Positions 19,199 through 45,068 of a stretch of DNA of 64,000 nucleotides are shown here, one piece after another (the stretch's first letter is position 1; every line of letters starts with the position of its first letter). The DNA comes from an uncultured Actinomycetota bacterium (GTDB taxonomy: Bacteria > Actinomycetota > Actinomycetes > Propionibacteriales > Nocardioidaceae): positions 165,568 through 229,567 of the forward strand of contig CAWDDC010000005.1 of NCBI GenBank assembly GCA_963801045.1. Direction: 5' to 3'. Made by a program: the position numbers and the translations under genes. The notes below the pieces were generated by a model, which was given only the letters and a program-made list of their open reading frames with translations, was not told where the DNA came from and ran no database searches.

Positions 19199-20505
19199 TC
19201 AGAGGACGGCGGCCCAGTCCCGGGTCTCGAGCGTCTGCTGCAGGTGCCGCAGGAAGCGCGCGGCGTAGCCGCCGTCGATCACCCGGTGGTCGAAGCTGAG
19301 CCCGACCGTCCCCACCGGGTGCACCGCGATGGCGTACTCGCCCGGTGCGGTCTCCACCGCCACCGGCTTGGCCTTGACGGTGTCGGTGGCCAGGATCGCC
19401 ACCTGTGGCTGGTTGATGATCGGGGCGGTCAGCAGGGTGCCGTAGGGGCCGGGGTTGCTGATCGTGAACGTGCCGCCGGCGTAGTCGTCCGGCCCGAGCC
19501 GCCGCTCGCGAGCGCCGGCGGCGAGCGCGGCGATCCGCCGGCCGAGCCCGGCCACGGTCAGGTCACCGGCGTCGCGCAGCACCGGCACCACCAGCCCGTC
19601 GGCGTCCAGGTCGACGGCGATGCCGAGGTGCACGCTGCGGTGCACCAGCAGGGCGCCGTCGCCGACCTGCGCGTTGACGTGCGGGTAGGCGGCGATCGCG
19701 TCGATGACCGCGCGGGCGATGAACGGCAGGTACGTCAGCGGCTTGCCCGGCACGGAACGGCGGGCGAGGTCCACGTTGCGGAAGTCGACCTCGACGGCCA
19801 TGAACGCGTGTGCCGACGTGGCCTTCGAGCGGACCATGTGCTCGGCCGTGCGCCGGCGCACCGAGGAGAACGGCACCACGTCGACGTCGTCGGGTACGGG
19901 GGGCGGCCGGCTCCGCGGCCGGCTCCGCGGACGGCTCCGCGGCGGGCGCTGCTACCGCCGCCGCCGGCTCTTCCACCGGCGCCGCGGTCGGCTCGTGCCG
20001 ACTGCGGGTCCAGCGCCGCCACGTCCGTGCGCAGCACCCGGCCGCCGGGACCGCTGCCGGTCACGTCTTGCTCGGACAGCCCGCGCTCGCGCAGCAGCCG
20101 GCGCACCAGAGGGCTGGCGCGGTGCCGGGTGTTCGGTTGGAACCCCGCCCCCCCGGAAGACGGGGGGACGACCGGGGGGGCGGGGGTCTGGGGGGCCGGC
20201 GCCTGGTCGGGCCGGCCGGGCGGGGCGCCGGTCGCGGCGGCCGGCGCCTCGGTGGCCGTCGGGCCGGCATCGGCGTCGCCGACGACGGCGAGGGCGGTGC
20301 CCACGGGCACGGTCTCGCCCTCGGGCACGAGGATCTCGCGGAGCACACCGGCCACGGTCGAGGGCACCTCGGTGTCGACCTTGTCGGTGGTGACCTCGAA
20401 CAACAGCTCGCCGACGGCCACCGGTTCGCCGACCTGCTTGAACCAGCTCGTGACGGTGCCCTCGGCGACGGTCTCGCCGAGCTGCGGCATGGTCACCTGG
20501 GTCAC
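19199..20505 (-). CDS. dihydrolipoamide acyltransferase (E2) of a 2-oxoacid/acetoin dehydrogenase complex; about 2 frame switches in the linker
   Basis: Lipoyl domain MPQLGETVAEGTVTSWFKQVGEPVAVGELLFEVTTDKVDTEVPS and a PSBD-like segment ASPLVRRLLRERGL. The catalytic domain is ORF 19199..19879 with the DHRVIDG motif. The GTG start overlaps the ALDH stop (GTGA). Confidence 0.85.
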
Positions 20506-22062
20506 CAGTCCACCGCCACGTACTGCGACTCGGTGAACTCCAGCAGCCCCTCGTGCCCGCCCTCGCGGCCGACGCCGCTCTGCTTCACGCCGCCGAACGG
20601 CGCCGCCGGGTCGGACACCAGACCACGGTTGAGTCCGACCATGCCGGCCTCCAGACGTTCGCTGATCCTCAAGCCACGTTGGAGATCCCGCGTGTAGACG
20701 TAAGCGACCAGGCCGTACTCCGTGGCGTTGGCGAGCGCCACCGCCTCGTCGTCGTGGCCGAAGGTGACCACCGGCGCCACCGGCCCGAAGATCTCGGTGC
20801 CGAGGATCTCCGCATCGGCGGGTACGTCGACCAGCACCGTCGGTGGGTAGAAGCAGCCCGGCACCCGCGGGCACCGACCCACCGGTCAGCAGCCGGGCGC
20901 CGTCGGCGACCGTACGGTCCACCAACCCGGCCACCGCGCGCTGCGCCTCGGCGTTGACCAGCGGCCCGAGCGCGACGCCGTCGCGGAGTCCGGGACCCAT
21001 CGGCAACGCCTGCATCCGCTCGGCCAGCCGGCGGCTGAACGCCTCCGCGACCCGCTCGTGCACGTAGAACCGGTTGGCCGCCGTGCAGGCCTCACCGCCG
21101 TTGCGCATCTTGGCGACCATCGCGCCGTCGACCGCCGCGTCGAGGTCGGCGTCGTCGAGCACCAGGAACGGCGCGTTGCCCCCGAGCTCCATCGAGCAGT
21201 CGACGACGGTGTGCGCCGCCTCGGCCAGCAGCGTGCGGCCGACCTCGGTCGAGCCGGTGAACGACAGCTTGCGCACCGCCGGGTGCGCCAGCACCGCCGC
21301 GCACAACGGACCCGACTGCTGCGACGGCAGCACGTTGACGACGCCGGCCGGCACCCCTGCCTGGCCCAGCAGGGCCACCACCGCCAGCGCGGTCAGCGGC
21401 GTCTCGCTGGCCGGCTTGAGGATCACCGGGCAGCCGGCCGCCAGCGCCGGCCCGATCTTGCGGGTCGCCATCGCGGCCGGGAAGTTCCAGGGGGTCACCA
21501 GCAGGCTGACCCCGACCGGCTTGTGCGTCACCAGGATCCGGTGCCCACCTGCCGGCGAGGTCTGCACCGAGCCGACGACACGGACGGCCTCCTCGGCGTA
21601 CCAGCGGAAGAACTCCGCCGCGTACGCCACCTCGCCGCGCGCGTCGGCGAGGGCCTTGCCGTTCTCGCGGACGATCAGCCGGGCCAGGTCCTCGCCGTGC
21701 CGGACCATCAGCCGGTAGGCGCGGCGCAGCACCTCGGCGCGCTCGCGGGGCGGGGTCGCGGCCCACACCGGCAGCGCGGCCTCGGCGGCCGCCACTGCGG
21801 CCAGCCCGTCGTCGACGGTCGCACTGGCCACCGTCGCCAGCACGCTGCCGTCGGCGGGGTCGCAGACCGTGATCCGGCCGCCGTCGGAGGCGGGCCGGTG
21901 CGCACCGGCGATCAGCAGGTCGTGGGAGAACCAGTCCAGCAGCTCGGGGTCGACCTGCGGGTCGGCGGCGCGTGAGTCGACCGGCGCGTCGGCCGCAGAA
22001 TCGACAGCAGCATCGACAACAGCGGTCTGCGGGGCCTGCGGAGGGAGGTCGGTGAGGGTCAC
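20502..22062 (-). CDS. NAD(P)+-dependent aldehyde dehydrogenase, succinate-semialdehyde dehydrogenase-like; one frame switch near 20880
   Basis: VTPWNFPAAMATRKIGPALAAGCPVILKPASETPLTA, FTGSTEVGR, MELGGNAPFLV and NGGEACTAANRFYV (catalytic Cys). The C-terminus is in ORF 20502..20882 (EIFGPVAPV...GGVKQSGVGREG). The GTG start overlaps the E1 beta stop. Confidence 0.85.
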
Positions 22063-23035
22063 GACTGCATCGCCTTCTCCACCGTGGTGACGATCCGGTC
22101 GACCGACGGCATCGCGAGGTCCTCCAGCGCCTCGGCCGACGGCAGCGGGATGTGCGGCGTGGTGATCCGGATCGGCGGCCCGTCGAGGTCCCAGAAGACC
22201 TCCTCGCCGGCGATCGACACCAGCTCGCCGCCCCAGCCGCACAGCCGCGGGTTCTCCTCCACGGTGAACATCCGGCCGGTCCGGCTCACCCGGTCGAGGA
22301 TGGTGCGGGTGTCCAGCGGCACCAGGCAGCGCAGGTCGACGACCGTGCACTCGATGCCGGCACCGGCCAGCTGCTCGGCCGCCTCGACCGTGCGCGGCAC
22401 CATGTTGCCCAGCGCCAGCAGCGTCGCGTCGCCACCCTCGCGCAGCACGCTCGCGGTGCCGAGGCTGTCGACCACGTCGCCGTCGGGCACCTCGCCGCGT
22501 ACGGGATAGAGCGCCTTCTCCTCGAGGAACACCACCGGGTCGTCGTCGCGCACCGCCGCCGCCATCAGCCCCACGACGTCGCGCGGGTTGGACGGCACCA
22601 CGACCTTGAGGCCGGGGATCGACATCATCCAGCTCTCGACGCTCTGGCTGTGCTGCGCGCCGAAGCGCAGCCCGCCGCCGTTGCCCGAGCGGACCACCAG
22701 CGGGAACGACATCTGGCCGGCCGTCATGTAGCGCGACTTGGCGATCTCGTTGGCGAGGATGTCCCAGCACACCGCGAAGAAGTCGCTGAACATGATCTCG
22801 GCGATCGGCCGCATGCCGGTCATCGCGGCGCCCATCGCCGCACCGAGGATGGCCTGCTCGCTGATCGGGGTGTCGCGCACGCGCACCGGGCCGAACTCCT
22901 CGAGCAGCCCGACGGTGCCCTTGAACACGCCGCCCGCAGCGGCGATGTCCTCGCCGATGAGCACCACGCTCTCGTCGCGGCGCATCTCCTGGGCGATGCC
23001 GCGGGCGATCGCCTCCCGGAAGGTCAGTTGCGCCA
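22059..23035 (-). CDS. 2-oxoacid (pyruvate/acetoin-type) dehydrogenase E1 component beta subunit
   Basis: Intact ORF: MAQLTFREAIARGIAQEMRRDESVVLIGEDIAAAGGVFKGTVGLLEEFGPVRVRDTPISEQAI... Start chosen at Met 23035, inside ORF 22059..23057. Confidence 0.9.
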
Positions 23036-24041
23036 TGCCGAGCCTCCGTCCGCCCACACGTCGCTCATCACCAGGTCGGCGCCGGGGATCGCGCCGGCAC
23101 GCGCCTCCCGGGTCGCGCGTTCGACCGCGGCGTCGGTCTCGGACTCGATGGCGGCCAGCTCGGCCTCACCGACGCCGATCTGCCAGCAGCCGGTCGCGGT
23201 ACATCGGCAGCGGGTCGCGGGCCAGCCACTTCTGCACCTCGTCGTCGGGGCGGTACTTGCCCGGGTCGGCGCGGGAGTGGCCGCCGTGCCGGTAGGTCTT
23301 GGCCTCGATCAGGCTCGGCCCCTCGCCCGCGCGGGCCAGGGCCAGTGCCTCGGCCGCCATCACGTAGACCGCGTCGGGGTCGTTGCCGTCGACCACCAGC
23401 GGGTCGAGCCCGTACGCGCTCGCGCGGTCGGCCGCCGGGTGCTCGACCGCGGTGACCGCGCCGATCGGCGTGTACTCCATGTACAGGTTGTTCTCGCAGA
23501 CGAACACCACCGGCAGCTTCCAGATCACCGCGAAGTTGAGCGCCTCGTGGAACGCGCCGATGTTGGTGGTGCCGTCGCCGAAGAAGCACACCGCCGCCTG
23601 CCCGCTGCCGCGGTACTGCGCGCTCCACGCCGCGCCGTTGGCGATCGTCAGGTGCGCGCCGATGATCGCGTACGAGCCCATCACGCCGTGCTCGACGCTG
23701 GTGAGGTGCATCGAGCCGCCCTTGCCCTTCATCAGGCCGTTCTCGCGGCCGAGCAGCTCGGCGAGCACCGGGGTCATCGGCACGCCGCGGGCCAGCGTGT
23801 GCGCGTGGCCGCGGTAGGTCGCGAACGTGTAGTCGTCGGGCCGCATCGCGACCCCGAACCCCGCGGCCACCGCCTCCTGGCCGAGCGAGAGGTGGCTGGT
23901 GCCCTTGACCAGGCCCTCGAGGAACAGGTCGTAGGCCCGCTTCTCGAACCGGCGCTGCTCCACGCAGGACCGGTACAGCGCGAGCCGCGTCGCGAGCGCG
24001 ACGTCGACGGTGGCGTGTTCCCCGAGGTACGGCGTGGACAT
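23023..24041 (-). CDS. 2-oxoacid dehydrogenase E1 component alpha subunit (ThDP-dependent); one frame switch near 23175
   Basis: ORF 23166..24041 carries the ThDP motif GDGTTNIGAFHEALNFAVIWKLPVVFVCENN. The C-terminal about 45 aa (GVGEAELAAIESETDAAVERATREARAG...) are in another frame, ending at a TGA that overlaps the E1 beta start. Confidence 0.85.
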
Positions 24042-24072
24042 GGTGCGGCTCCCTGGTGCCGGGGACGGACGG

Positions 24073-25299
24073 TCAGTACGGGTTGGCGACGACGAGGTCC
24101 TGGGCGGGGAAGAGGGTGAGGATCGCGCAGCCGTCGTCGGTCACCACCACCTCCTCCTCGATCCGGGCGGCGGAGAAGCCGTCGGAGGCGGGGCAGTAGG
24201 TCTCCAGCGCGAACACCATGCCCGCCTGCAGCTCGACCGGCTCGGTCATCGAGTTGAGCCGGGAGATGATCGGCCGCTCGTGCAGGCCGAGCCCGAGGCC
24301 GTGGCCGAACTGCAGCCCGAAGGCGGCCATCTCGTCGGCGAACCCGAAGTCGGTCGCCGCCGGCCACACCGCGGCGACCTCGTCGGTGCCCACGCCCGGC
24401 CGGATCATGGCGATCGAGGCGTCCATCCACTCCCGCGCCTTCGTGTACGCGTCCCGCTGGCTGCCGGTCGCGCTGCCCACCGAGAACGTGCGGTAGTAGC
24501 AGGTCCGGTAGCCGTTGTAGGAGTGGATGATGTCGAAGAACGCCATGTCGCCCGGCCGGATCAGCCGGTCGGTGAAGTTGTGCGGGTGCGGGTTGCAGCG
24601 CTCGCCGGAGATGGCGTTGATCGCCTCGACCTGGTCGGAGCCCATCTCGATCAGCCGCTTGCTGGCCAGCGCGACGATCTGGTTCTCGCGCACGCCGGGC
24701 TTCAGCGCCTCGACGATGTCCTGGTAGACGCCGTCGACCATGGCCGCCGCCTGGGTGAGCAGCATGATCTCGTCGGAGGACTTGATCACCCGCGCGTCGA
24801 GCAGCAGCTGCTGGCAGTCGACGACGGTGAGGCCCTGGCGCTGCATCTCGAACAGGAACGCCGGCTCGACGATGTCGACGCCGACCGGCTGGTCGGCCAC
24901 GCCGGCGTCGGTGAGCAGGCCCTTGATCTGGCGTACGGCCGACTCCATCAGGCCGGCGGTCGGGGCGACCGCGCCGCGCATCCCGAGCATGCCGGCGCGG
25001 CAGTTGTCCGGGTCGAGCCACGGTGAGTACAGCTGGTGGTGGCGGGTCGCGGAGCCGAAGTCCCACAGCATCGGCTCGCCGCCCTGCGTCAGCAGGGCGT
25101 AGCGGGTCATCTTGTCGCCGAGCGCGCCGCCGACCCAGGTCTGCGTGGTGTAGCGGATGTTGTAGAAGTCGAACAGCAGGAACGCGCCGCACTCGCTGCC
25201 CGCCAGCGACGCGCGGACCCGCCCGAGCCGGTAGTCGCGCAGCCGGGGGAAGTCGACCCGTTGCTCGTAGTCGACTCCCATGTGCCCCGGCGCGGGCAT
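24073..25299 (-). CDS. M24-family (creatinase/prolidase fold) hydrolase, paralogue 1
   Basis: Intact about 408 aa in the frame of ORF 24073..26322: creatinase-like N-domain, then PGDMAFFDIIHSYNGYRTCYYRTF...HGLGLGLHERP...FALETY...IEEEVVVT. Confidence 0.8.
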   Translation of the reverse strand: MPAPGHMGVDYEQRVDFPRLRDYRLGRVRASLAGSECGAFLLFDFYNIRYTTQTWVGGALGDKMTRYALLTQGGEPMLWDFGSATRHHQLYSPWLDPDNCRAGMLGMRGAVAPTAGLMESAVRQIKGLLTDAGVADQPVGVDIVEPAFLFEMQRQGLTVVDCQQLLLDARVIKSSDEIMLLTQAAAMVDGVYQDIVEALKPGVRENQIVALASKRLIEMGSDQVEAINAISGERCNPHPHNFTDRLIRPGDMAFFDIIHSYNGYRTCYYRTFSVGSATGSQRDAYTKAREWMDASIAMIRPGVGTDEVAAVWPAATDFGFADEMAAFGLQFGHGLGLGLHERPIISRLNSMTEPVELQAGMVFALETYCPASDGFSAARIEEEVVVTDDGCAILTLFPAQDLVVANPY

Positions 25300-25310
25300 C
25301 GGTCGCACTG

Positions 25311-26267
25311 TCAGCCCTCCCCGTCGGCCGGCTCCGGGGCGAGGCCGTCGGTGACGGCGGCGTCCTCGGTCTCCAGCTCGACGCCGGACCGGCGGGCCTG
25401 CTCGAGGATCAGGGTGGCGAAGTCGTCCTTGACGTGGCCTGCGCCGATCGCCGAGGCGACCAGCTGGGCCGCCAGCGCGGCCACCGGCATCGGCACCCCG
25501 AGCTCCCGGCCGGCGTCGAGCCCGAGGGTGAAGTCCTTGAGCAGCAAGGGATTGGTGAAGGTCGGCGTGAAGTCGAGGTTGACCAGCGCGGGCGTCTTGT
25601 AGCGGGTGAAGGTCGACCCCAGCACCGAGTCGTTGAGGAAGCCGAGGAACGCCTCGCGGCTGGTGCCGCCCTGCTGCGCGAGCAGCGTGATCTCGGCCAG
25701 CGACTGGGTCACCACCCCGAGGAAGACGTTGTGGCAGATCTTGACCAGCCGGGCCGCCTCGCCCTCGCCGACGAAGGTCACGCTCTGGCCGAGCAGCTCG
25801 AGCAGCGGCAGGACCTGGTCGTAGGCCCCGCGCGGACCGGAGACCGCCATCGTGAGCTTGCCGGCGGCGACCACCGACGGGTTGCCGCTGACCGGTGCGG
25901 CCAGCAGCGTGGTGCCGCGCGCGGCGGCTGCCTCGCGGACGACCTGCGACGACTCGGTCGACACCGTGGAGGAGTCGACGAGCACCGTGGGCGCGGCGCT
26001 GCCGCTGAGCAGGCCGCCGTCGCCGAGGACCACCTGCTCGAAGTCGGCCGAGGCGGACACCATGGTGAAGACGACGTCGCGGTCGGCCAGGTCGGCCGGG
26101 CTGTCGACGACGCTCGCGCGCCCGCCGGCCACCGCCTCGGCCTTGGACCGGGTGCGGTTGTAGACCGCCACGTCGTGCCCGGCGTCGACCAGGCGTCCCG
26201 CCAGCGCGGCACCCATCCGTCCGGCGCCGATCCACCCGATGCGTGGGCCGTCCGACCTCGCGCTCAT
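25311..26267 (-). CDS. NAD(P)-dependent beta-hydroxyacid dehydrogenase (3-hydroxyisobutyrate dehydrogenase family), paralogue 1
   Basis: ORF 25311..26291. Rossmann motif IGWIGAGRMGAALAGRLVDAGHDVAVYNRT, then PVSG...G and the C-terminal all-helical domain typical of the HIBADH/6PGDH-like family. Confidence 0.85.
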   Translation of the reverse strand: MSARSDGPRIGWIGAGRMGAALAGRLVDAGHDVAVYNRTRSKAEAVAGGRASVVDSPADLADRDVVFTMVSASADFEQVVLGDGGLLSGSAAPTVLVDSSTVSTESSQVVREAAAARGTTLLAAPVSGNPSVVAAGKLTMAVSGPRGAYDQVLPLLELLGQSVTFVGEGEAARLVKICHNVFLGVVTQSLAEITLLAQQGGTSREAFLGFLNDSVLGSTFTRYKTPALVNLDFTPTFTNPLLLKDFTLGLDAGRELGVPMPVAALAAQLVASAIGAGHVKDDFATLILEQARRSGVELETEDAAVTDGLAPEPADGEG

Positions 26268-26286
26268 GCATGCTCCCGCCGTCGAC

Positions 26287-26358: not shown

Positions 26359-27379
26359 TCAGCCGGGTGGCGGCGCCGTCGACCCCCGGACGCTGAGCGT
26401 GAGCGGGAGCAGCAGCGAGCGCGGGTGCCGGTCGGCGTCCTGCAGCACCTCGAGCAGCAGCCGCGCCGCCTCCGCCCCGATCTCGTAGTGCGGCACCCGC
26501 ACCGAGGTGAGCGGCGGATCGACCCGGTGCATCATCGGGGTGTCGTTGAAGCCCACCACGCTGACCTCGTCCGGGCAGGCCAGGCCGTGCGCCCGCAGCA
26601 CGTCGTAGCAGCCGAGGGCGATCAGGTCGTTGCCGGCCAGCACCGCGGTGTACGGCACCCCCGAGCCGATCAGCTGCTCCATCGCCTCCGCCCCGGCGGC
26701 CTCCGACCAGGTCGAGCAGCCCACGATCCGCTCGGTGCCCCCCGGGAGGCCGAGGTCCTCCAGTGCCTGCCGGAACGCCTGCCGGCGCACCACGCCGGTG
26801 GACAGGTCCTGCGGCCCCGCCAGGTGCACGATGTCGCGGTGCCCGAGGTCGTGCAGGTGCCGCATCGCCATCGCGACCCCGGCCGCGTCGTCGGGCGTGA
26901 CCGAGGGGATGGCCGGGCTGCCGACCCGGCGGTTGACCAGCACCACCGGCGTCCCGGTGCCCGCGAGCTCCTGCAGCAGCGGGTGCTGCAGCCGGGCGGT
27001 GGCGACCACGAAGCCCTCCACGCTGCGCCCGCGGAACGACTCGATCGCCGCGGCCTCGCGGTCGGGATCGTTGTCGGTGTTGACGATCCACGCGTTGTAG
27101 CCGACGGCGCGCAGGACGTCCTCGATCCCCCGCACGATCGGCGGGAACAGCGGGTTGGTGATGTCCGGCAGCAGCAGCCCGATGCTCGCCGAGCGCGAGG
27201 TCTTGAGGCTGCGGGCGATCGGGTTCGGGGTGTAGCCGAGCTGGCGGGCGGCCTGGTCGACCCGCTCGGCGGTCTCGGCGTTGACCAGGCCGCGGGTGGC
27301 GGCGTTGAGTGCCCGCGACGCGGTCGCGGGGTGCACCCCGGCGCTGCTTCGCGACCTCTTTGAGGGTGGCCCGTTCCAC
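26359..27379 (-). CDS. LacI family transcriptional regulator; one frame switch near 27345
   Basis: HTH VERATLKEVAKQ|AGVHPATASRALN, split between the frames of ORFs 26264..27424 and 26359..27558. A periplasmic-binding-protein-like sugar-binding core follows (IGLLLPDITNPLFPPIVRGIED...VVGFND). Confidence 0.85.
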
Positions 27380-27419
27380 GCGGCGCACAGTAGCGCCTGT
27401 CCGCCCCGGTGGGAGGGAT

Positions 27420-27509: not shown

Positions 27510-28341
27510 GTGGCGCGGCTCTCCGACCCCGGCACGCACTGGGCGGTGGAGGACCCACGCGCGCTGGCCCTGCGGATCCGGCGGCGGGCGGTGCGGATGG
27601 TGGCGCCCCAGGGTTTCGGCTACCTCGGCCAGGCGCTGTCGGCGGCCGAGCAGGTGGCGGCGGTCTTCGCCGTGCTGCGGCCGGGGCGGGACCGGCTGGT
27701 CTGCTCGCCCGGGCACTACGTCATCGCGCCGTTCGCCGCCGCGGGCGAGCTGGGCCTGCTCGACGAGGACCTGCTGGACGCGTACGGCCAGAACGGCGCG
27801 ACCCTCGAGGCGATCGGGACCGAGCGGTCGCCGCTGTTCGACCACACCTGCGGATCGCTGGGCCAGGGCCTGTCCGCCGCCGCCGGCTACGCGCTGTCGG
27901 CGCGGATGACCGGCGACGACACCCGCACGTACGCGCTGGTGAGCGACGGCGAGCTGGAGGAGGGCCAGGTGTGGGAGGCGGCCATGTTCGCCGCCCACCA
28001 CCGGCTGTCGGCGCTCACCGTGCTGCTGGACGCCAACAACTCCCAGGTCGACGGCCCGGTCGACACCATCACCACGATCGAGCCGATCGCGGACAAGTGG
28101 ACGGCGTTCGGCTGGCACGCGCAGGACGTCGACGGCCACGACGTCGACGCCGTCGTGACCGCGCTGGAGCGGGCCGCCGGCCACTCCGCAGCCCAGCGTC
28201 GTGGTCTGCCGCACCTCCACCGTGCACGGTCTCGACTGCCTGCCGGCCGACGCGGACGGGCACTTCATCAAGCTCCCGCCCGAGCTCGCCCGGGCCGCCG
28301 TCGACGAGCTCACCGCGCGGCTGGAGGCACGGCATGCATGA
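27510..28341 (+). CDS. transketolase, N-terminal (ThDP pyrophosphate-binding) subunit of a split enzyme; one frame switch near 28185
   Basis: ORF 27510..: GFGYLGQALSAAEQVAAVFA..., GSLGQGLSAAAGYAL and SDGELEEGQVWEAAMFAAHHRLSALTVLLDANN. The C-terminal tail (VVCRTSTVHG...) is in another frame. The stop overlaps the next gene. Confidence 0.85.
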
Positions 28342-34637: not shown

Positions 34638-34652
34638 GCCGGCGCGACCCAG

Positions 34653-36545: not shown

Positions 36546-37282
36546 TGCTGCGGCTCGACGGGGTGGTGGCCGGCTACGGCGGTGGCGACGTGCTGCAGGG
36601 CGTCGACATCGAGGTGGCGCCGCAGTCCGTCGCGTGCATCGTGGGTCCCAACGGCGCCGGCAAGTCGACCGTGCTGCGTACGGTCAGCGGACTGCTCAAG
36701 CCGCGGCTCGGCGAGGTGCTGCTCGACGGGAGGCGCATCGACACCCTCAGCCCGGCGCAGATCCTGGCCCAGGGGGTCAGCCAGGTGCCGCAGTCGGACG
36801 CGTTGTTCTCGACCCTGACGGTGCGCGAGAACGTGCTGCTCGGCGGCTACATCATCCGCCGCGACCGGGCGCTGGTGCGCCGTCGCTACGACGAGGTCAA
36901 GGCGCTGTTCCCGATCGTGGGCGACCGCGAGGCCGACCGCGCCGGCAACCTGTCCGGCGGGCAGCGCCGGATGGTGGAGTTCGCCCGCTCGCTGATGCTC
37001 GACCCGGTGCTGGTCCTGCTCGACGAGCCGTCCCTCGGCCTCGACCCGCGCGCGCTGCAGTCGGTGCACGACTCGGTGCTGCTGATGCGCGAGCACGGCA
37101 AGACGATTCTCATCGTGGAGCAGAACGTGCGGTTCGGCATGCGGCTGGCCACCGACGGGATCGTGATGGAGAGCGGGCGGGTGGTGACCCAGCGGCCGGC
37201 CCAGGAGGTCGTCGACGATCCCGAGATCGCGAGCCTCTACTTCGGCGGCACCCCCGGGACGTCGGAAGGACGAGGCACGTGA
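36545..37282 (+). CDS. branched-chain amino acid-type ABC transporter ATP-binding protein (LivF-like)
   Basis: [24 protein letters not shown]...GPNGAGKST...[15 protein letters not shown]...LLDEPSLGL. The start overlaps the previous stop (TGATG). Confidence 0.9.
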
Positions 37283-38860
37283 GCACCAGCAGCGCCGACA
37301 TCGTGGTCGCGGGCGCCGGCCACAACAGCCTGATCACCGCGTGCTACCTCGCCAAGGCCGGCCACTCCGTCCTGGTGCTCGACGCCCGCCCGATCCCCGG
37401 TGGCGGTGCCGCGACGGAGGAGATCCTGCTGCCGGGCTACCGGCTCGACTCCTGCTCGACCGGGCACACGATCATCCAGAACAACCCGCTGATCGCCGAC
37501 GACGAGCTCGGGCTCGCGGCCACCTACGGCCTGCGCTACGTCGACCCCGACCCGGTCGGGCACGTCGCCTTCCCCGACGGCGCGCAGCTCACCCACTGGC
37601 TCGACGTCGACCGCACCGTCGAGGAGATCGCGCGGTTCTCCAAGCGGGACGCCGACTCCTACGTCCGGCTGCTGCGGGAGTGGGACGAGGTCAAGGCGGT
37701 CTTCGGCCGCAGCCAGCACCGCCCGATCGGCGCCGGCCCGTCGCTGGAGCAGGAGCTGTCCGAGCACCCGCGCGGCAACGTGTGGAAGCGCCGCCGGGTG
37801 CTCGGCTCGTGGGACGTGATCCGGCACGAGTTCGAGAGCCGGCACGTCCAGTCGTACCTGCTCTGGCAGGCCTACCAGACCCTGGTGCGGCCCGACTCCG
37901 CCGGCTCCGGCCTGCTCGCCTACTCCGTGGTCGCGTCCCGGCAGCGGCGCAGCTGGACCATCCCGGTCGGCGGTTCCGGCACGCTCACCGACGCGCTGGT
38001 GGCGTGCCTCGAGTCGTACGGCGGCCGCGTGCTGTGCAACCGGACCGTGCGGCGGCTGCTGGTCGAGGACGACCGGTGCGTCGGGGTGGAGACGACCGAC
38101 GGCGAGCAGTACCGCGCCGGCACCGCCGTGCTGTCGAGCATCCACGTCAAGCACCTGCTGGACATGGCGCCCGCGGAGTCGTGGGACGAGGACTGGACCT
38201 ACGGCGTGCAGACCTACGAGGTCGGCGCGTCCGGCCTCGCGGTCTACCTGGCCACGACCGCGCCCCCCGAGTTCGTCGTCGACGGCGAGCCGCGCTCGGC
38301 GGTGTCCGCGGGTCTCGTCGGGTGGCCCGAGGACGTCGTCCGGCACGCCCGCGACATGGCCGACGGCGTGTGGAGCGACGAGGTGCCGTGGCTGCTGATG
38401 GCCACGCCGACGCTGGCCGACCCGTCGCGGGCGCCGGCGGGCCACCACACCGTCAAGTTCCTGCAGCCGTGCGGCTGGCGGCTGCGCGACGGCGACGACT
38501 GGGAGTCGGCCAAGGCCCGGCGGCTGGAGACGCTGCTCGAGGCCGTCCGGCGGCACTGCCCCGGCTTCACCGACGACGTGATCCTGGCGTCGTACGTGAA
38601 GGGGCCGTACGACATCGAGGCGACCAACGCGCACATGATCCGCGGCGCCTTCCACGGCGGTGACCGCAGCATCGCCTGGTCGGGGCCGCAACGTCCGGCG
38701 CCGGGCTGGGCCTCGCACCGCACCCCGATCGCCGGGCTCTACCAGACCGGCGCCACCACGCACCCCGGCGGCTCGATCACCGGTGCGCCGGGGCGCAACG
38801 CCGCGCAGGTCATGCTCGCGCGACCTCGGCACGTCCCTCGAGGAGCTGCTGCATGGCTGA
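37279..38860 (+). CDS. NAD(P)/FAD-dependent oxidoreductase, phytoene desaturase (CrtI)/amine oxidase-like; one frame switch near 38820
   Basis: Dinucleotide fold [40 protein letters not shown] and C-terminal [24 protein letters not shown]. The GTG overlaps the LivF stop. The last about 13 aa are in ORF 38660..38860. Confidence 0.75.
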
Positions 38861-39941
38861 CCGCAACGTCGAGGTCGCGATCGCCCACTGGGCGCCGCGG
38901 ATGATCCAGAACGGCGTGGACTACAACGACTTCGTCCGTACGACCGCGCGGATCGAGACGTGGGCCGACTGGCTGCCGGAGTGGAACCGCACCGCCGACG
39001 AGCACGCCGAGCTGGCCGCGCGTACCGAGGCCGAGGGGCACCTGCTCACTGCCGGCCACGCCTGGCGGCGGGCGTCGGTCGACCGGCACTTCGGCAAGTT
39101 CGTCTGGCAGCTCGACCTCGACCTGGTCGACGAGGCGACCCGGCGCAGCGTCGAGGAGATGCAGCACGCCCACCGGCTGCTCGACCCCACCGCCGAGCGG
39201 CTGGTCGTCGACGTCGACGGGCACCCGTTGGCGGCCAACCTCCGCCGGCCGCCGGGGGTGGACCGGCCACCGTGGGTCGCGGTGATCCCCGGCCTGGACT
39301 CCACGAAGGAGGAGTTCTTCTACTTCGAGCAGTCGTTCCTCGACCGCGGCATGGCCACGGTGTCGGTCGACGGTCCCGGCCAGGGCGAGACCGGTCTGGA
39401 CGGCGCCGGCCGCGGGCTGCCGATCCGCGCCGACTACGAGACCGGCCTGGTCCCGCTGCTCGACCTGGTGTGCGCCCGCACCGACCTCGACCACGACCGG
39501 ATCGGCCTGGTCGGCGTCAGCCTCGGCGGCTACTACGCGCCGCGGGTGGCGGCGCACGAGCCCAGGCTGCGCGCGGTCGCCGGCATCAGCGGCCCGTTCC
39601 GCTTCGGCGACCTGTGGGACGACCTGCCGCCGATGACCCGCGAGACGTTCACGGTGAAGTCGGGTGGCGGCAGCGACGACGACGGCCGAGCGCGGGCCGC
39701 GACGCTCGACCTCACCGGCGTCTGCGAGCGGATCGAGGTGCCGGCGCTCTACGTCACCGGCGCCCTGGACCGGCTGATCCCCTGGCAGCAGACGCAGGCG
39801 CAGGCCGAGCACACCCCGAAGGGCGAGTTCGTCTGCTACCCCGACGGCAACCACGGCGCGTCGAACCTGCCCGCCGTGGCACGCCCGTTGATCGCGGACT
39901 GGATGGCCGACCGGCTCGGCACCGGACAGGAGGAGTCATGA
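38853..39941 (+). CDS. alpha/beta hydrolase (FrsA / 2,6-dihydroxypseudooxynicotine hydrolase-like architecture, tentative)
   Basis: Intact 362 aa. A helical N-terminal domain of about 140 aa is followed by the nucleophile elbow GVSLGG (Ser223), Asp306 (GALDRL) and His334 (DGNHG). Confidence 0.65.
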   Translation: MADRNVEVAIAHWAPRMIQNGVDYNDFVRTTARIETWADWLPEWNRTADEHAELAARTEAEGHLLTAGHAWRRASVDRHFGKFVWQLDLDLVDEATRRSVEEMQHAHRLLDPTAERLVVDVDGHPLAANLRRPPGVDRPPWVAVIPGLDSTKEEFFYFEQSFLDRGMATVSVDGPGQGETGLDGAGRGLPIRADYETGLVPLLDLVCARTDLDHDRIGLVGVSLGGYYAPRVAAHEPRLRAVAGISGPFRFGDLWDDLPPMTRETFTVKSGGGSDDDGRARAATLDLTGVCERIEVPALYVTGALDRLIPWQQTQAQAEHTPKGEFVCYPDGNHGASNLPAVARPLIADWMADRLGTGQEES

Positions 39942-41419
39942 CCTCACACGCGTGGTCCCGTCGGGCCGTGCTCGGTGCGGCCGCCGCGAGCGGCACCGCG
40001 GCCCTCGGCCCGGTCGCCTGGGCGGCGCCACCCGCCGCACCCCGTCCCTCGGCGGGACTGCCCCGGCGCAAGGAGTTCGTCATCCGTGGCGCCTACGTGC
40101 TGAGCATGGACGACGAGATCGGTGACCTCGACGGCGGCGACGTGCACGTACGGGACGGCCAGATCGTCAACGTGGGCAGGCGTCTGCGCCCGCGCTGCCC
40201 GGTCGTCGACGGCCGGGACACCATCGTGATGCCCGGTCTGGTCGACACCCACTGGCACCTCTGGACCACCCTTTACCGTTCGATGGCGTCGTCGTCGCCG
40301 GACAACGCCTACTTCACGCTCAACCTGCGGCACGGCCTCGTCTGGGAACCCGGCGACACCTTCGACGGCGTGCGGCTCGCCGCGGCCGACGCCGTGCACA
40401 ACGGGGTGACGACCGTGCACGACTGGTCGCACAACCTGCGCGGACCCGACTACGCCGACGCCAACCTCTTCGCCCTCAACGCCAGTGGCCTGCGCGGCCG
40501 GTTCTCGTACGGTGCGCCGCAGGGACATCCGGCCGACCAGCCGATCGACCTCGAGGACCTGGCCCGGGTCAAGCGGCGCTGGTTCGACACCGGGCGCGCC
40601 GAGCTGCTGCGGCTCGGCCTCGCCGGCCGACCGCCGGTGGGGACCGGAGCCGCGGAGCTCGACCGCTGGCGGCTGGAGTACGACACCGCCCGCGAGCTGG
40701 GACTGCCGGTCAGCGTGCACGCCAACTCCAACCGGGCCCAGGGCGACCGCGCGATGATCGCGCAGCTGGCCGAGGAGGACATGCTCGGCCCGCACCTGCA
40801 GGTGATCCACGCGCTCTACACCACGCCCGAGGAGCGGGCGGCGCTGGTCGGGTCCGGCACCCCGGTGTCGGTGAGCCCGTGGTCGGAGCTGTTGATCGGC
40901 TACGGCGTCACCACGGTCAGGGAGCTGATCGAGGCGGGCGCGCACGTCACCCAGTCGGTCGACACCCTCCCGCTGACCGGCACGGCGGACATGTTCTCGG
41001 TCATGCGGCTGACCCTCGGCCTGCACCGCGGGCAGTCGGAGAGCGAGTTCTCGATCGCGGCGCGGCAGATCCTGGCGTCGGCGACGATCGACGGCGCCCG
41101 CGCGCTGGGTCTCGGCGACGTCACCGGCTCGCTGACACCCGGCAAGCGGGCCGACCTGCTGATGGTGCGGACGGACGCCGTCTCGATCGCACCCTTCACC
41201 GACCCCGTCAACATGATCGTGACCGCGGCGCACCCGGAGCACGTCGACACCGTGGTCGTCGACGGGCGGGTGCTCAAGCGGCGCGGCCGGCTGACGGCGG
41301 TCGACACCCGCCGGGTGGTCCGCCGCGCCGAGGGGGCGCTGGCTGCGGTGATCGACCGGGCCGAGGCCGACCCCGTGGCCCGGTCGGCGGTCGCCGCAGA
41401 CATCGCCTGCTGCGGTTGA
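39938..41419 (+). CDS. amidohydrolase superfamily metallo-hydrolase with twin-arginine (Tat) signal peptide
   Basis: Intact about 493 aa. The signal peptide is MTSHAWSRRAVLGAAAASGTAALGPVAWA. The HxH metal motif is PGLVDTHWHLW, and downstream SVHAN and ...GKRADLL are typical of the family. ATGA overlap with the previous gene. Confidence 0.8.
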   Translation: MTSHAWSRRAVLGAAAASGTAALGPVAWAAPPAAPRPSAGLPRRKEFVIRGAYVLSMDDEIGDLDGGDVHVRDGQIVNVGRRLRPRCPVVDGRDTIVMPGLVDTHWHLWTTLYRSMASSSPDNAYFTLNLRHGLVWEPGDTFDGVRLAAADAVHNGVTTVHDWSHNLRGPDYADANLFALNASGLRGRFSYGAPQGHPADQPIDLEDLARVKRRWFDTGRAELLRLGLAGRPPVGTGAAELDRWRLEYDTARELGLPVSVHANSNRAQGDRAMIAQLAEEDMLGPHLQVIHALYTTPEERAALVGSGTPVSVSPWSELLIGYGVTTVRELIEAGAHVTQSVDTLPLTGTADMFSVMRLTLGLHRGQSESEFSIAARQILASATIDGARALGLGDVTGSLTPGKRADLLMVRTDAVSIAPFTDPVNMIVTAAHPEHVDTVVVDGRVLKRRGRLTAVDTRRVVRRAEGALAAVIDRAEADPVARSAVAADIACCG

Positions 41420-41453: not shown

Positions 41454-42344
41454 GTGGGAGCGGGCGCCGGGGTGAGCGGGGCTGTCTGGGCCGCGCTCTC
41501 CGGCGCCCTGTTCGGGATCTTCCAGGCGGTGAGCGCGGTCATCGTCCGCCGGGCGGTGAGCGTCTCGCTCGCGACGTTCGTGCAGCTCGCCGGGGCCACG
41601 GTGGCCGTGGGCGCGATCGCCGCGGTGACCGAGGGACTCGACCGGCTGGGCGAGGCGCCGGCCCGCAGCCTGGTGATGTTCGCGCTGGCCGGGATGATCC
41701 ACTTCCTGGTCGGCTGGACCTCGCTGAACCGGAGCCAGCGCCGGATCGGGGCGGCGCGGACGGCACCGCTGCTGGCGACCACGCCGTTGTTCGGGCTGCT
41801 GGTGGCGCTGGTCGTGTTCGGCGAGCTGCCCGGCCAGGTCGCGCTGGTCGGCATCGCGGTGACGATGCTGGGCGCGTACGTGATCACCGACCCGGGTGCG
41901 GGCAGCCGGGTCGCGCTGGGCGAGTCCGGCTGGGGTCTGGTGACGGCGTTCGTGTGGGCGCTGAGTGCGCTGTTCACCGTCGAGGGGCTGGACGGTTTCT
42001 CCTACCCGCTGCTCGGCGTCACCGTCGGCATGGCGGCGGCCACGGTGCCGTACGGCGTGCTGCTGCTCGCCGACCGGGCACCGGTCACGTGGGCGGACGT
42101 CCGCGCCGACCTCGGGCTCAAGCTGCTCGCCGGCACCCTGGTCGCGGTCGCCACCTGGTGGCGCTGGCTCGGCCTGGAGACGACCTCGATCGGCATCGTG
42201 CTCGCGCTGCAGCTGTTGTCGGTGCCCGCCGTGCTCGTCGCCGCCCCGCTGATCGCCCGCCGGGGCGACGAGGTCGTGACCACCCGGCTGGCCCTCGGCA
42301 CCGGCGTGGTCCTCCTCGGCGCCCTCGCCCTCATCCTCGGCTGA
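41454..42344 (+). CDS. EamA/DMT family transporter
   Basis: Intact 296-aa ORF with about 10 hydrophobic helices and two EamA-like halves. Confidence 0.75.
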   Translation: MGAGAGVSGAVWAALSGALFGIFQAVSAVIVRRAVSVSLATFVQLAGATVAVGAIAAVTEGLDRLGEAPARSLVMFALAGMIHFLVGWTSLNRSQRRIGAARTAPLLATTPLFGLLVALVVFGELPGQVALVGIAVTMLGAYVITDPGAGSRVALGESGWGLVTAFVWALSALFTVEGLDGFSYPLLGVTVGMAAATVPYGVLLLADRAPVTWADVRADLGLKLLAGTLVAVATWWRWLGLETTSIGIVLALQLLSVPAVLVAAPLIARRGDEVVTTRLALGTGVVLLGALALILG

Positions 42345-42380
42345 CCCGCCCCGACCGCCTCGCCCGCCGCGCTCCGAACT

Positions 42381-42445
42381 CGCGAAGTGGCGGCAACACG
42401 CCGGCGACACGCCGGAGTGGGCGACCGGATGCCGCCACTTCCGCG
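42381..42445. repeat. REP-like palindromic intergenic element, copy B
   Basis: CGCGAAGTGGCGGCAACACGCCGGCGACACGCCGG...TGCCGCCACTTCCGCG with about 15-bp arms. It lies between the convergent EamA and IorB-like genes. Confidence 0.6.
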
Positions 42446-42459
42446 TTGGCGGAGGGACG

Positions 42460-44576
42460 TCAGCCGGCCTCGATCGCCGCCGCCACCCGCTCGGCGGTGA
42501 GCGGCAGGTCGCGTACGCGCACCCCGATCGCGTCGGCCAGCGCGTTGCCGATCGCCGCCGCGACCGGGCCCGCCGCCGCCTCGCCGGAGCCAAGGCTGGG
42601 CTGGTCCGGTCGGTCGAGCACGTGCACCTCGACCCGGGGCACCTGGCTGAACCGCAGGATCGGGTACGCCTCCCAGTCGGTGCTCTCGACCCCGCCGGCG
42701 CCGAGCCGTACCTGCTCGAGCACCGTCCAGCTGGTCGACTGGATCGCGCCGCCCTCCAGCTGGTTGACCACGCCGTCGAGGCTCACCACCCGGCCCACGT
42801 CGACGGCGACGGTCAGCCGCCGGACCGCGACCCGGTCGACCGCCTCCACCTCGGCGACCACCGCGCAGTAGGCACCGCGGTTCTTGTAACGGGCGTAGGC
42901 GATCCCGCGGCCGACGTCGTCCGGACGCGGCTCGTGCAGACCGCCCCGCTCGGCGGCGGTGCGCAGCACGTCGGCGGCGCGCTCGTCGCGCAGGTGCGCG
43001 AGCCGCAGCCGCACCGGGTCGGCCCCGGTCTGCTGCGCCAGCTCGTCGAGGAACGACTCGATCGCGAACACGTTGAGGTGCGCGCCGAGCGAGCGCAGCG
43101 CCGAGGTACGCACCGGCATCGTCAACGAGCGGTGCGCCACGACCTCGAGCCGGCCGAGGTCGTAGCCCGGCTCCGCGTTGCGCGCCGACCCGTGCCCCGC
43201 GTGCGCCGGATGGGTCGACCGACGGCGGCGCGTCGGCGTCGCGGCGGTGGGTGTGCCCGAGCAGGCCGGGCTCCCCGCCGTAACCGGGTCGTGCGGTGTG
43301 CCCGTTGCTCCACAGCTGGTGCGACCAGTCGGTCACCCGGCCGTCCGGCCCGACGGTGGCGGCCAGGTCGACGGCCATCGCCGACCCGAACGGCGACCAG
43401 CCCAGCTCGTCGGCCCGACTCCACTGCACGCGTACCGGGCCGGCCGGGCAGGTGCCGGGCCAGCAGCACCGCGTCGAACGCGACGTCGTCGGCGCCGTTG
43501 TGGCCGTAGCAGCCGGCGCCCTCGACGTGCTGGACGCGTACCCGCTCGAGGGTCGAGGTCGAGCGCTGCGGCGATCGCGGCCCGCTGCGGGTGCACCCCC
43601 TGGCTGTGCGTCCACACCTGCACGGCAGCCGTCGTCCCACCGGGCGATGCCGCAGCCGGGGGCGATCGAGGCGTGGGCCAGCGGGGGCCGGGTGTACGAC
43701 GCGCGCAGGGTGGTGGCGACCGGCGGCGGGTCGGACCGCTCGACCACCGTGGTCTCGACCGGCTGCTCCCGCAGCCAGGCGGGTACGTCGACCGGCAGCT
43801 CGATGCCGCCGGACCACACCGCTGCGCCGGCCAGCGCGGCGGCCGCCACCTCGACCTGGTCCTCGGCGTCGGCGAGCACGCCGACGAACGAGCCCTCGCG
43901 CACCACCGCGAGCACGCCGGGCAGCGCCTCGACAGCGCCCGGGTCGAGCGACGCCAGCCGGGCGCCCGGTCGCGGCGGCCGCACCACCCGGCCGTGCGCC
44001 ATGCCGTCCATCCGCAGGTCGTGCAGGAAGCGCGGACGGCCGAGCAGCGTGTCCGCGAGGTCCAGCCGGTCGACGTCGGGGCCGTCGCGGCGGACCACCG
44101 TGGCGGCCGGCAGCGGCTCGCCGGTCGCTTCGACGTCGAGCCCGCCGGCGCGCGCGGCCTCCCAGAGATCGGCGACCGCGTCGTCGCCGCGCAGGAAGCA
44201 CCCGTCGTCGAGGACGAGGTCGGCGGGCGCACAGCCCGCGTCGGTGGCGACCCGCTCGGACAGCAGCCCGAGCAGCACCCGGCAGACGTGCCGCAGGCCG
44301 GCACCCGACTGGGTGATGGACAGGCTGCCGGCGGTGAAACCCTCGTTCGGCCCGGTGTCGGTTGCGGCCGCGGCGACCCGTACCCGCGTGGGGGCGACCC
44401 CGAGCTCGTCGACGACGATCTGCGCGAGCGCGGTGAGGATCCCCTGTCCCAGCTCGACCTTGCCGGTGCGGACGAGCACCTGGCCGGGCTCGTCCAGGTC
44501 GAGCCAGGTGCTCAGCAGCGGGTTGGCGAGCAGGCTGGGCGGCAGCTCCGTCGGCAGCTCCGTCGGCAGCGGTCAC
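42460..44576 (-). CDS. molybdopterin-dependent hydroxylase large subunit (IorB / aldehyde oxidase-xanthine dehydrogenase family); 5 or more frame switches
   Basis: Segments: LVRTGKVELGQGILTALAQIVVDELGV..., VQVWTHSQGVHP...RVRVQHVEGAGCYGHNGADDVAFDAVLLA...VRVQWSRADELGW, and the C-terminal ORF 42460..43140 (MPVRTSALRSLGAHLNVFAIESFLDE...GSGEAAAGPVAAAIGNA). The GTG overlaps the small-subunit stop. Confidence 0.75.
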
Positions 44577-45028
44577 GTCGTCACCGACAGCACCGCGCGG
44601 ACGATCCGCTCGTGGGTGCCGCACCGGCACAGGTGCCGGTCGAGCGCCTCGACCACCTCGTCGCGGGTGGGGGTCGGGTTGTCGCGCAGCAACGCCGCGG
44701 CACTCATCAGGATGCCGGGGATGCAGTAGCCGCACTGCGCGGCCTGCTCCCGCAGGAACGCCGCCTGCAGCGGGCCGGGCTCGCCGTCGTCGGCGAGGTC
44801 CTCGACGGTGCGTACCGGCCGCTCGCCGACGTAGTCGACCGGCTGGTCGCACGAGGGTGTCGGGTGTCCGTCGAGCCAGACCGTGCAGGCTCCGCACAGC
44901 CCCTGCCCGCAGCCGAACTTCGCGCCGGTCAGGCCCAGCGCGTTGCGCAGCACCAGCAGCAGCGGCGTCCCGGGCTCGGCGGCGACCTGCTCGGACCGGC
45001 CGTTGACGTCCAGCCGGTACGTGCCCAC
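44573..45028 (-). CDS. (2Fe-2S)-binding small subunit of a molybdo-hydroxylase (IorA/CoxS-like)
   Basis: Intact 151 aa with two cluster motifs: CGQGLCGACTV and CGYCIPG...CRCGT. Confidence 0.9.
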   Translation of the reverse strand: MGTYRLDVNGRSEQVAAEPGTPLLLVLRNALGLTGAKFGCGQGLCGACTVWLDGHPTPSCDQPVDYVGERPVRTVEDLADDGEPGPLQAAFLREQAAQCGYCIPGILMSAAALLRDNPTPTRDEVVEALDRHLCRCGTHERIVRAVLSVTT

Positions 45029-45054
45029 GCCTCAGCCTCCCGCGCCGGTCGCGC

Positions 45055-45068
45055 TGCAAACGATTGTA
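45055..45068. promoter_or_regulatory. LacI/GalR-type operator O4: TGCAAACGATTGTA
   Basis: Lies 27 nt upstream of the IorA-like GTG (45028). On the coding strand it reads TACAATCGTTTGCA, so its left half doubles as a TACAAT -10-like hexamer. Confidence 0.55.

Follow-up and report, generated by a model that had tools for sequence, protein, structure and literature searches.

A 64,000-nucleotide stretch of DNA from an uncultured soil actinobacterium related to Nocardioidaceae (contig CAWDDC010000005.1, positions 165,568–229,567; hereafter the window, with position 1 as its first letter) carries a 27,555-bp block of transport and catabolic genes inside a conserved, origin-proximal gene array, between nfo and a FemAB-family gene (femAB). 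A preliminary description, made from the sequence alone, had pointed to a catabolic insertion at this place. Here, by comparing the locus across relatives, we show that the block is an accessory genomic island at a hotspot of variable gene content, and that it is a mosaic whose modules are gained and lost among near relatives. We further find that an M24 'pita-bread' enzyme, encoded twice within the island, belongs to a gene neighbourhood that recurs in many actinobacterial orders, and we weigh the pathway that this neighbourhood may encode.

Because the G+C content of the window is about 73%, raw lists of open reading frames (ORFs) are dominated by shadow frames; coding frames were traced by Viterbi segmentation of codon-position G+C, and frames were stitched before annotation with Pfam and NCBIfam. 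Each gene class named in the preliminary description was recovered by Pfam: two regulators, one ABC importer, one drug/metabolite transporter and 15 enzyme polypeptides. The features of the block and its flanks, with their strands where assigned, are as follows.

16004–17033, − strand: Alr-like gene (Ala_racemase_N, by Pfam on orthologues), syntenic in 80 of 80 loci.
17220–18203, − strand: FemAB-family gene (by Pfam on orthologues), start codon GTG at 18203, syntenic in 80 of 80 loci.
18276–19075, + strand: dienelactone-hydrolase (DLH) family gene, one frameshift; PF01738 on the L166 orthologue.
19063–19172, + strand: copy 1 of a repetitive extragenic palindrome (REP)-like element, 110 nt, between the convergent DLH and E2 genes.
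19199–20560, − strand: E2 dihydrolipoamide acyltransferase with lipoyl, E3-binding and catalytic domains (PF00364, PF02817, PF00198), one frameshift.
20502–22064, − strand: SSADH-like aldehyde dehydrogenase (ALDH), between E1 beta and E2, frameshift near 20866.
22059–23036, − strand: thiamine diphosphate (ThDP)-dependent E1 beta (PF02779, PF02780), PDH/acetoin-dehydrogenase type.
About 23047–24074, − strand: ThDP-dependent E1 alpha (PF00676), PDH/acetoin-dehydrogenase type.
24073–25308, − strand: M24 'pita-bread' enzyme no. 1 (411 aa), resembling DddP along its entire length.
25311–26270, − strand: beta-hydroxyacid dehydrogenase (HIBADH family) no. 1, by Pfam.
26359–27400, − strand: LacI-family regulator, by Pfam and NCBIfam.
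27510 to about 28340, + strand: N part of a split transketolase (TK), by Pfam.
28327–29244, + strand: C part of the split TK, by Pfam.
29392–30730, + strand: M24 no. 2, by Pfam.
30726–31639, + strand: HIBADH no. 2, by Pfam.
31635–32394, + strand: GntR/FCD regulator, by Pfam.
32480–37282, + strand: HAAT (Liv-type) ABC importer, comprising the solute-binding protein (SBP), LivH, a LivM+LivG fusion and LivF, by Pfam.
37245–38904, + strand: CrtI/amine-oxidase-like flavoprotein, by Pfam.
38853–39941, + strand: FrsA/DHPON-hydrolase-like alpha/beta hydrolase, by Pfam and a match to 2JBW at E = 2e-45.
39936–41419, + strand: amidohydrolase with a Tat-like N-terminus, by Pfam.
41454–42344, + strand: EamA transporter, by Pfam.
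42346–42455, + strand: copy 2 of the REP-like palindrome, 110 nt, between the convergent EamA and IorB genes.
42460–44570, − strand: IorB-like large subunit of a molybdo-hydroxylase, frameshifted, by Pfam.
44573–45028, − strand: IorA-like [2Fe-2S] subunit of the molybdo-hydroxylase, by Pfam.
45125–45159, − strand: incomplete third copy of the REP-like core, inverted and 83% complementary, in the divergent IorA/erm intergenic region.
45250–45790, + strand: short rRNA adenine methyltransferase resembling Erm(37)/Erm(41), frameshifted; last gene at the right end of the insert.
45787–46615, − strand: nfo, conserved right flank.
46814–47525: MacB-type ABC ATPase, conserved right flank.
47533–50074: FtsX permease, conserved right flank.
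50571–50873: rpsF, conserved right flank.

The limits of the insert are set by relatives that lack it. In nucleotide alignment, positions 8802–8805 of the related locus L004 join window positions 18221 and 45777, so the insert spans 18222–45776, and a second empty locus, L003, agrees with this. In junction alignments the insert reaches, on one side, the femAB promoter and a conserved TAGCCT motif that closely precedes the femAB start, and on the other the stop codon of nfo; at the empty site of L004 this stop codon and the motif overlap. The block as originally outlined, at 19199–45068, is thus real but was drawn too narrowly, as the DLH gene on the left and the erm-like gene on the right also lie inside.

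On the left, ino1, padR, ponA and a GT87/Rv0051-like gene end at 16.04 kb, and on the right rpsF, ssb, rpsR and rplI follow from 50.57 kb with dnaB at 54.0 kb, as the preliminary description had it. Its order of flank genes was correct, but two conserved genes at 16.0–18.2 kb, Alr-like and FemAB-like, separate the Rv0051-like gene from the block. Across the family the order is ino1, padR, ponA, GT87/Rv0051-like, Alr-like, FemAB, a variable segment, nfo, (ABC–FtsX), rpsF, ssb, rpsR, rplI, MATE and dnaB, and the nfo–rpsF interval also varies among loci. In the complete genome of Nocardioides ungokensis the homologous locus (L077) lies 20–41 kb from the end of the record and is therefore origin-proximal.

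To place the block among relatives, one genome per species was scanned with the Alr-like flank gene and the proteins of the window were mapped onto the resulting 80 loci, all from Nocardioidaceae or Propionibacteriales and many of them from metagenome bins. The nearest species, L001 (Alr 90% identical) and L002 (Alr 82% identical), both have the island beside femAB, and it is found at the same junctions in L001, L002/L084 and contig_4051 (L081/L083), which represent three independent assemblies (ERZ25039530, ERZ25039516 and ERZ25039504). In the next relatives, L003–L006 (Alr 70–75% identical), the site is empty and nfo lies 9–143 bp from femAB. Across loci, femAB and nfo are separated by anything from 0 to more than 8.8 kb: the gap is at most 150 bp in 17 of the 80 (L003–L006 and 13 others), 0.2–2.6 kb in 22 and 3.5–8.1 kb in 19, while eight loci (for example, L016 and L062) have no nfo within the roughly 8.8 kb examined on that side. 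Where the slot is occupied in other lineages, the contents can be unrelated to the island, comprising an aldo-keto reductase, a transglutaminase/Alpha-E/ATP-grasp trio and a siderophore-interacting protein in L016, and a LuxR-type ATPase regulator, a methyltransferase, an FAD monooxygenase and a BBE oxidase in L007; no mobility genes were annotated in the cargo of either locus. One Nocardioidaceae bin has three tandem nfo-like matches between femAB and the ABC genes (L020:5040–8315), which could be a local duplication or an assembly artefact.

Parts of the island also appear farther afield. In L009, a more distant bin (Alr 66% identical), genes for E1 alpha (88% identical), E1 beta (85%) and E2 abut femAB (L009:1–2890) through a junction of the same type as in contig_4051, and in L007 the edge of the flank, some 8 kb away from femAB, holds an E2-like gene (L007:1–8800). 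The same type of operon may have entered the slot more than once.

The block is thus an accessory (flexible) genomic island at a hotspot, given its polymorphic presence and the differing cargo of the slot. The view that an accessory block sits in conserved synteny holds: by synteny across the 80 loci, the block is confined to the closest clade (L001, L002/L084 and contig_4051), with the site empty in L003–L006 and other cargo elsewhere, and it is not present in all related genera. The origin-proximal array is indeed conserved, but the insertion site, which had been taken as a conserved junction, is not pristine but a hotspot with family-wide variation.

Within the clade, the contents of the island differ from one relative to the next. 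Contig_4051, although 96% identical, lacks ALDH (window 20518–22055) and DLH together with the REP element (window 18273–19161). DLH is present in both L001 and L002; ALDH is present in L001 and absent from L002 as it is from contig_4051. L001 has neither the amidohydrolase nor any of the module that holds the split TK, M24 no. 2, HIBADH no. 2 and GntR, and in L002 that same module is inverted and an extra MFS gene is present. The block is accordingly a mosaic of at least four operon-sized modules, gained and lost independently among near relatives. The first comprises LacI, HIBADH, M24, E1 alpha/beta, (ALDH) and E2; the second the split TK with M24 no. 2, HIBADH no. 2 and GntR; the third the Liv-type ABC importer, the CrtI-like flavoenzyme, the DHPON-hydrolase-like hydrolase, the amidohydrolase and EamA; and the fourth IorAB, with DLH and the Erm-like gene as single genes besides.

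We favour, with a probability of roughly 70%, the reading that this is a flexible genomic island without mobility machinery in the nfo–femAB slot of the origin-proximal array of Nocardioidaceae-like actinobacteria. Adjacency of nfo and femAB would be the ancestral state, and the common ancestor of a small clade would have gained catabolic cargo in the slot. The cargo probably entered through homologous recombination at the conserved flanks, and not by the action of a site-specific integrase, and the block would afterwards have been remodelled gene by gene.

Four points weigh against this reading. The direction of change, gain as opposed to loss, is drawn from parsimony only; the flank examined per relative was 10 kb; both junctions share an imperfect 8–9-nt repeat, GCGC(C)ACCC, that could be a vestigial target duplication; and the E1 alpha, E1 beta and E2 genes of L009 and the E2-like gene of L007 occur in genomes more distant than the relatives with an empty site, which repeated transfer, or ancient presence followed by losses, could explain.

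The chief competing explanation is ancient presence, in which the block, or the E1/E2 operon at the least, would be ancestral here and would have been deleted wherever nfo adjoins femAB, making this a decaying core region. The abutment of the L009 operon on femAB and the E2-like gene at the flank edge of L007 fit it, and gene-level losses within the clade are clear. Yet nfo and femAB are adjacent in 17 loci across the family, including the four nearest outgroups L003–L006, the nfo stop codon overlaps the femAB upstream motif in L004, and unrelated cargo fills the slot in other lineages. Furthermore, E1 alpha and E1 beta are slow-evolving, being 73–82% identical even on contigs of 53–65% G+C, and therefore their identity in L009 does not show common descent at the site. 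We consider an ancestral block unlikely.

Signs of mobility in the window were sought from several sides. Pfam found no integrase or transposase among all stitched island genes, in agreement with the preliminary description, and no recombinase, transposase or relaxase among the genes of the window or the called genes of related loci. The window has no tRNA or tmRNA, and an Rfam scan of it gave no match at E ≤ 0.1, hence no riboswitch or other RNA hinting at a ligand. Non-coding gaps within 19199–45068 are each shorter than 230 nt and therefore leave no room for a hidden gene. No direct repeats were found at 18.2 and 45.8 kb; a sequence related to GCGC(C)ACCC, GTCCACCC, occurs once at the empty site, and the imperfect 8–9-nt match, the sole candidate for a target-site duplication, was rejected as too weak. 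G+C is 0.70–0.77 within and beyond the block with no step, and G+C at third codon positions is 0.89–0.98 for the listed genes inside the block compared with 0.85–0.99 outside, so neither measure offers a compositional anomaly as a sign of transfer.

The three REP-like palindromes reported at gene junctions resolve into two good copies and a third that is only partial and inverted. Copies 1 and 2 are 70% identical over 110 nt, and copy 1 forms a strong hairpin (predicted fold energy −61.5 kcal/mol, z = −4.3), whereas the third folds no better than shuffled sequence. The 14-nt core alone, with 2 matches against 1.9 expected, is not above chance. The 110-nt repeat is conserved in the 96% identical relative (L083 for copy 2) and was not detected in the other loci searched. 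As boundaries of the island the palindromes were rejected, since none coincides with the insert ends; on the simplest reading, the copies that mark module joints are terminators or REP elements.

These features bear on a further alternative, that an integrative element once stood here, such as an integrative and conjugative element, its actinomycete counterpart or another integrase-borne island, and that the block is what was left after its integrase and attachment sites decayed. The repeat at both junctions with its relative at the empty site, the palindromes at module junctions and the Erm-like resistance gene among the cargo would be in keeping with such an origin. Against this stand the lack of integrase, transposase, relaxase and tRNA in the window and in three related assemblies, the lack of space for a hidden gene and of a compositional step, the weakness of an 8-mer repeat in DNA of 75% G+C, and the displacement of the REP copies from the true insert ends. 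An integrative remnant is, in our judgement, very unlikely.

The quality of the sequence has to be considered beside its content. The Viterbi segmentation shows many frame switches within evident single genes, including the conserved cell-wall gene ponA, for which the switches at 12.5–15.2 kb are read from the coding-frame segmentation only. A 13.3-kb alignment with the 96% identical contig_4051, covering 22–35 kb of the window, resolves the frame breaks at 28181, 28802, 30032, 31173, 32957, 33882 and 34641 as single inserted bases. In this stretch the 1-nt insertions, several of which fall in the split-TK module at 27510–32394, lie outside homopolymer runs. The ORFs of contig_4051 are intact at the compared break sites, and contig_4051 has breaks of its own in other genes. 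The frameshifts of the window look like errors of assembly or consensus sequence, so the proteins need frame correction. Pseudogenization of the island was rejected, because the compared breaks are single inserted bases, the ORFs of the relative are intact there, ponA is also hit and the relative shows breaks elsewhere.

Such frameshifts, which reach even into ponA, could also suggest that the block is an assembly chimera in a frameshift-ridden long-read metagenome-assembled genome, and the closest relatives are themselves metagenome bins. The left junction, however, recurs in L001, L002 and L081 and the right junction in L083 and L084, in independent assemblies from different samples, and the frameshifts stem from isolated insertions of 1 nt and involve no rearrangement. 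A chimera is exceedingly improbable.

The favoured flexible island resembles the chromosomal hotspots of horizontal gene transfer and flexible islands without mobile elements, a concept reportedly set out by Oliveira, Touchon and Rocha in 2017. As in such hotspots, variable cargo lies between two core genes with many alternative contents for one slot, integrase, tRNA, repeat and compositional step are lacking, and genes turn over among close relatives. The island differs in its seat within a normally very stable origin-proximal array (ino1...rpsF–ssb–rpsR–rplI–dnaB) and in its size of 27.5 kb, far above the other fillings, for which the largest gap is 8.1 kb where nfo was located within the flank examined.

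Within the island, the genes that recur most widely elsewhere are those around M24. M24 no. 1 is 86–92% identical in Pseudonocardiales, Geodermatophilales, Micromonosporales and Streptosporangiales; it also occurs on 80 metagenomic contigs, with 75–86% identity on most and 98% on one, and M24 no. 2 is similarly conserved. The neighbourhood of the gene was compared in 46 metagenomic loci of at least 7 kb (52–73% G+C). The neighbours of M24 on metagenomic contigs are mostly only 30–70% identical, with one subgroup of E1 alpha/beta at 73–82%. In 42 of the 46 loci HIBADH is the gene immediately upstream of M24, and LivF (26), E1 alpha (25), ALDH (23), LacI (20) and E2 (17) are frequent nearby; the alpha/beta hydrolase (10), IorB (3) and IorA (2) are less so. 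The constant core of these neighbourhoods is HIBADH, M24 and either E1/E2 or ALDH, together with an amino-acid-type ABC importer.

Individual genomes show the core in different settings. Almost the whole set is clustered in Actinoallomurus (SBP–LivHMGF–alpha/beta hydrolase–HIBADH–M24–ALDH, IorBA–GntR and E1–E2). The quartet of TK-N, TK-C, M24 and HIBADH is kept in Arthrobacter and Sinosporangium, where M24 no. 2 is always found with the split TK and HIBADH. On a marine-metagenome contig of 53% G+C (L140:2553–9823), M24 is 77% identical, an Opp/Dpp-type ABC importer (SBP_bac_5) replaces the Liv type, and an SDR gene, GntR, a fused E1 alpha–beta and E2 follow downstream. The closest solved structures to the Liv-type SBP of the island (3IP5 and 4N0Q) are amino-acid binders.

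By profile, by sequence and by predicted fold, M24 is closest to DddP, an M24-fold lyase of dimethylsulfoniopropionate (DMSP; structures 4S01, 4RZY and 4B28). Both paralogues match the DddP model over their full length, with NCBIfam scores of 107 and 113 bits that miss the equivalog cut-off of 600, and an AlphaFold model of M24 (mean confidence, pLDDT, 79) retrieves DddP structures first, at a template-modelling score of about 0.8 and 21–22% identity, with the same arrangement of the N-terminal domain. Of the canonical binuclear-metal ligands of M24 enzymes (Asp, Asp, His, Glu, Glu), alignment to the Pyrococcus furiosus prolidase 1PV9 shows that the island enzyme retains all but the second Asp, which is replaced by Cys. 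This Cys lies in the motif D-I-I-H-[SA]-[YF]-x-G-Y-R-T-C-Y-Y-R-T of both paralogues and is invariant in 236 of 240 homologues. To our knowledge, HIBADH, E1/E2 and TK are not partners of DddP in DMSP catabolism.

It is possible, at slightly less than even odds, that the paired modules, each joining a Cys-bearing DddP-like M24 to a beta-hydroxyacid dehydrogenase and a ThDP enzyme (E1/E2 or split TK), encode an uncharacterized pathway, widespread in the environment, by which some small, polar and abundant metabolite is degraded. The supply would come from ABC importers of amino-acid or peptide type, and M24 would represent a new catalytic type with an Asp-to-Cys exchange at a bridging metal ligand. 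The enzyme is under exceptionally strong purifying selection, with 75–92% identity kept across actinobacterial orders and metagenomic contigs of 52–73% G+C. A literature search on the gene combination found nothing relevant.

The chemistry can be sketched with low confidence from homology at the family level. Modules 1 and 2 would be paralogous versions of one route. A small polar, amino-acid-like or peptide-like compound would be imported and then opened or cleaved by the DddP-like M24, through C–N hydrolysis or beta-elimination. A HIBADH-type dehydrogenase would oxidize the resulting beta-hydroxy acid, a ThDP enzyme would cleave the carbonyl product (either E1/E2, yielding an acyl-CoA, or transketolase through ketol transfer) and the SSADH-like ALDH would oxidize an aldehyde fragment. 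Two points count against this scheme: no enzyme in it reaches an equivalog cut-off, and the importers beside the core vary by lineage among Liv, Opp/Dpp and ribose types. As candidate substrates, DMSP or another beta-onium propionate, ectoine, creatine or guanidino acids, pantothenate, glycerate or hydroxypyruvate, and Amadori compounds were each set aside, the resemblance being at the family level only.

No island protein reached an NCBIfam equivalog cut-off, which bears out the earlier statement that the block as a whole matches no known pathway; only two passed generic subfamily models, the amidohydrolase (PRK08204) and E1 beta (PDH E1 beta, 333 versus 321 bits). The preliminary description had also likened the block to nicotine- or nicotinate-type degradation, an impression that arises from the DHPON-hydrolase homologue, IorAB and the SSADH-like ALDH. 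A single N-heterocycle pathway of this type, filling the whole block, draws on the full-length match of the alpha/beta hydrolase to 2,6-dihydroxy-pseudo-oxynicotine (DHPON) hydrolase (2JBW, a C–C hydrolase; E = 2e-45), on a two-subunit molybdenum (Mo) hydroxylase and an SSADH-like ALDH in the block, and on the clustering of the same families with M24 and HIBADH in Actinoallomurus. However, the homology to 2JBW is the sole specific link, with no protein at an equivalog cut-off. In the Pfam scans a ring-hydroxylating flavin monooxygenase is missing, and so is a clear ring-cleavage dioxygenase; the Mo enzyme has no FAD subunit, and a clear 6-hydroxynicotine or methylaminobutyrate oxidase was not seen either, the CrtI/amine-oxidase-like gene being the sole candidate flavoprotein. 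The nicotine-like parts are peripheral, with IorAB beside the core in only two or three of the 46 neighbourhoods and the hydrolase in ten, the modules are gained and lost independently, and the closest solved SBPs bind amino acids. We hold a single pathway of this kind to be distinctly unlikely.

With the nicotine pathway of Arthrobacter nicotinovorans pAO1 (DHPON hydrolase, the Mo-dependent NDH and KDH, and SsaDH), the island shares a hydrolase homologue, a Mo-hydroxylase and an SSADH-like ALDH, but 6-hydroxynicotine oxidase, 2,6-dihydroxypyridine hydroxylase and methylaminobutyrate oxidase were not found in it by Pfam, and its Mo enzyme has two subunits whereas that of pAO1 has three. We know of no nicotine-pathway counterpart for the dominant M24, HIBADH, E1/E2 and TK genes. 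The Mo enzyme is organized like isoquinoline 1-oxidoreductase (IorAB), with a small [2Fe-2S] subunit followed by a roughly 700-aa subunit that binds the molybdenum cofactor and no FAD subunit; its best NCBIfam matches are to 4-hydroxybenzoyl-CoA reductase, xanthine dehydrogenase and aldehyde oxidoreductase, far below their cut-offs. Like the acetoin and 2-oxoacid dehydrogenase complexes (AcoABC, PDH and BCKDH), the island encodes E1 alpha, E1 beta and a lipoyl-E2 together, and its cluster shares the lack of an E3 gene with many aco operons. It differs in that, in the window, the ALDH gene is intercalated between E1 beta and E2. The corresponding models give 300 versus 394 bits for E1 alpha, 315 versus 423 for E2 and 88 versus 307 for acetoin-E2, and with every equivalog score below its cut-off the curated models assign no substrate class to the E1/E2 complex.

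The right-most gene of the island encodes a protein of 172–174 aa in relatives, in which RrnaAD is the sole domain found; it scores 201 and 188 bits against the Erm(37) and Erm(41) models, below their cut-off of 350. It could be an intrinsic macrolide-resistance determinant of the soil actinobacterium. The gene sits near the conserved MacB-type ABC pump.

Beyond the block, the window encodes at 60581–62566 (+ strand) a 661-aa EF-G-like GTPase with GTP_EFTU, EFG_III, EFG_IV and EFG_C domains, a size that we take to be typical of ribosomal protection proteins of the Tet(M)/OtrA type and not of housekeeping EF-G. Just upstream lie a MarR regulator, a frameshifted MFS transporter (57115–59121) and a mycothiol S-transferase (59149–59784). 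At the other end, stitched translations of positions 1–10000, read by eye, include an extracytoplasmic-function sigma/anti-sigma pair, MurJ/MviN, a large Rv3909-like protein and a CCA/poly(A) polymerase, contiguous with ino1. This left-end gene set lies across oriC from ino1 in Mycobacterium tuberculosis and is contiguous with ino1 in Streptomyces.

The island is a textbook case of a known kind, in which large accessory blocks accumulate and turn over without mobile-element machinery even in a stable origin-proximal array; it is useful and unsurprising. The core of M24 with its Cys, HIBADH and a ThDP enzyme is the more valuable lead, as it is found across many actinobacterial orders, as well as on at least one contig from a marine metagenome (L140), and has no characterized member. 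If the proposal is true, the Cys-bearing M24 would be a novel catalytic type within the pita-bread fold. The core is carried by the cultured Actinoallomurus bryophytorum, Sinosporangium siamense, Arthrobacter sp. I2-34 and Planotetraspora thailandica, in which a search for the substrate could proceed directly.

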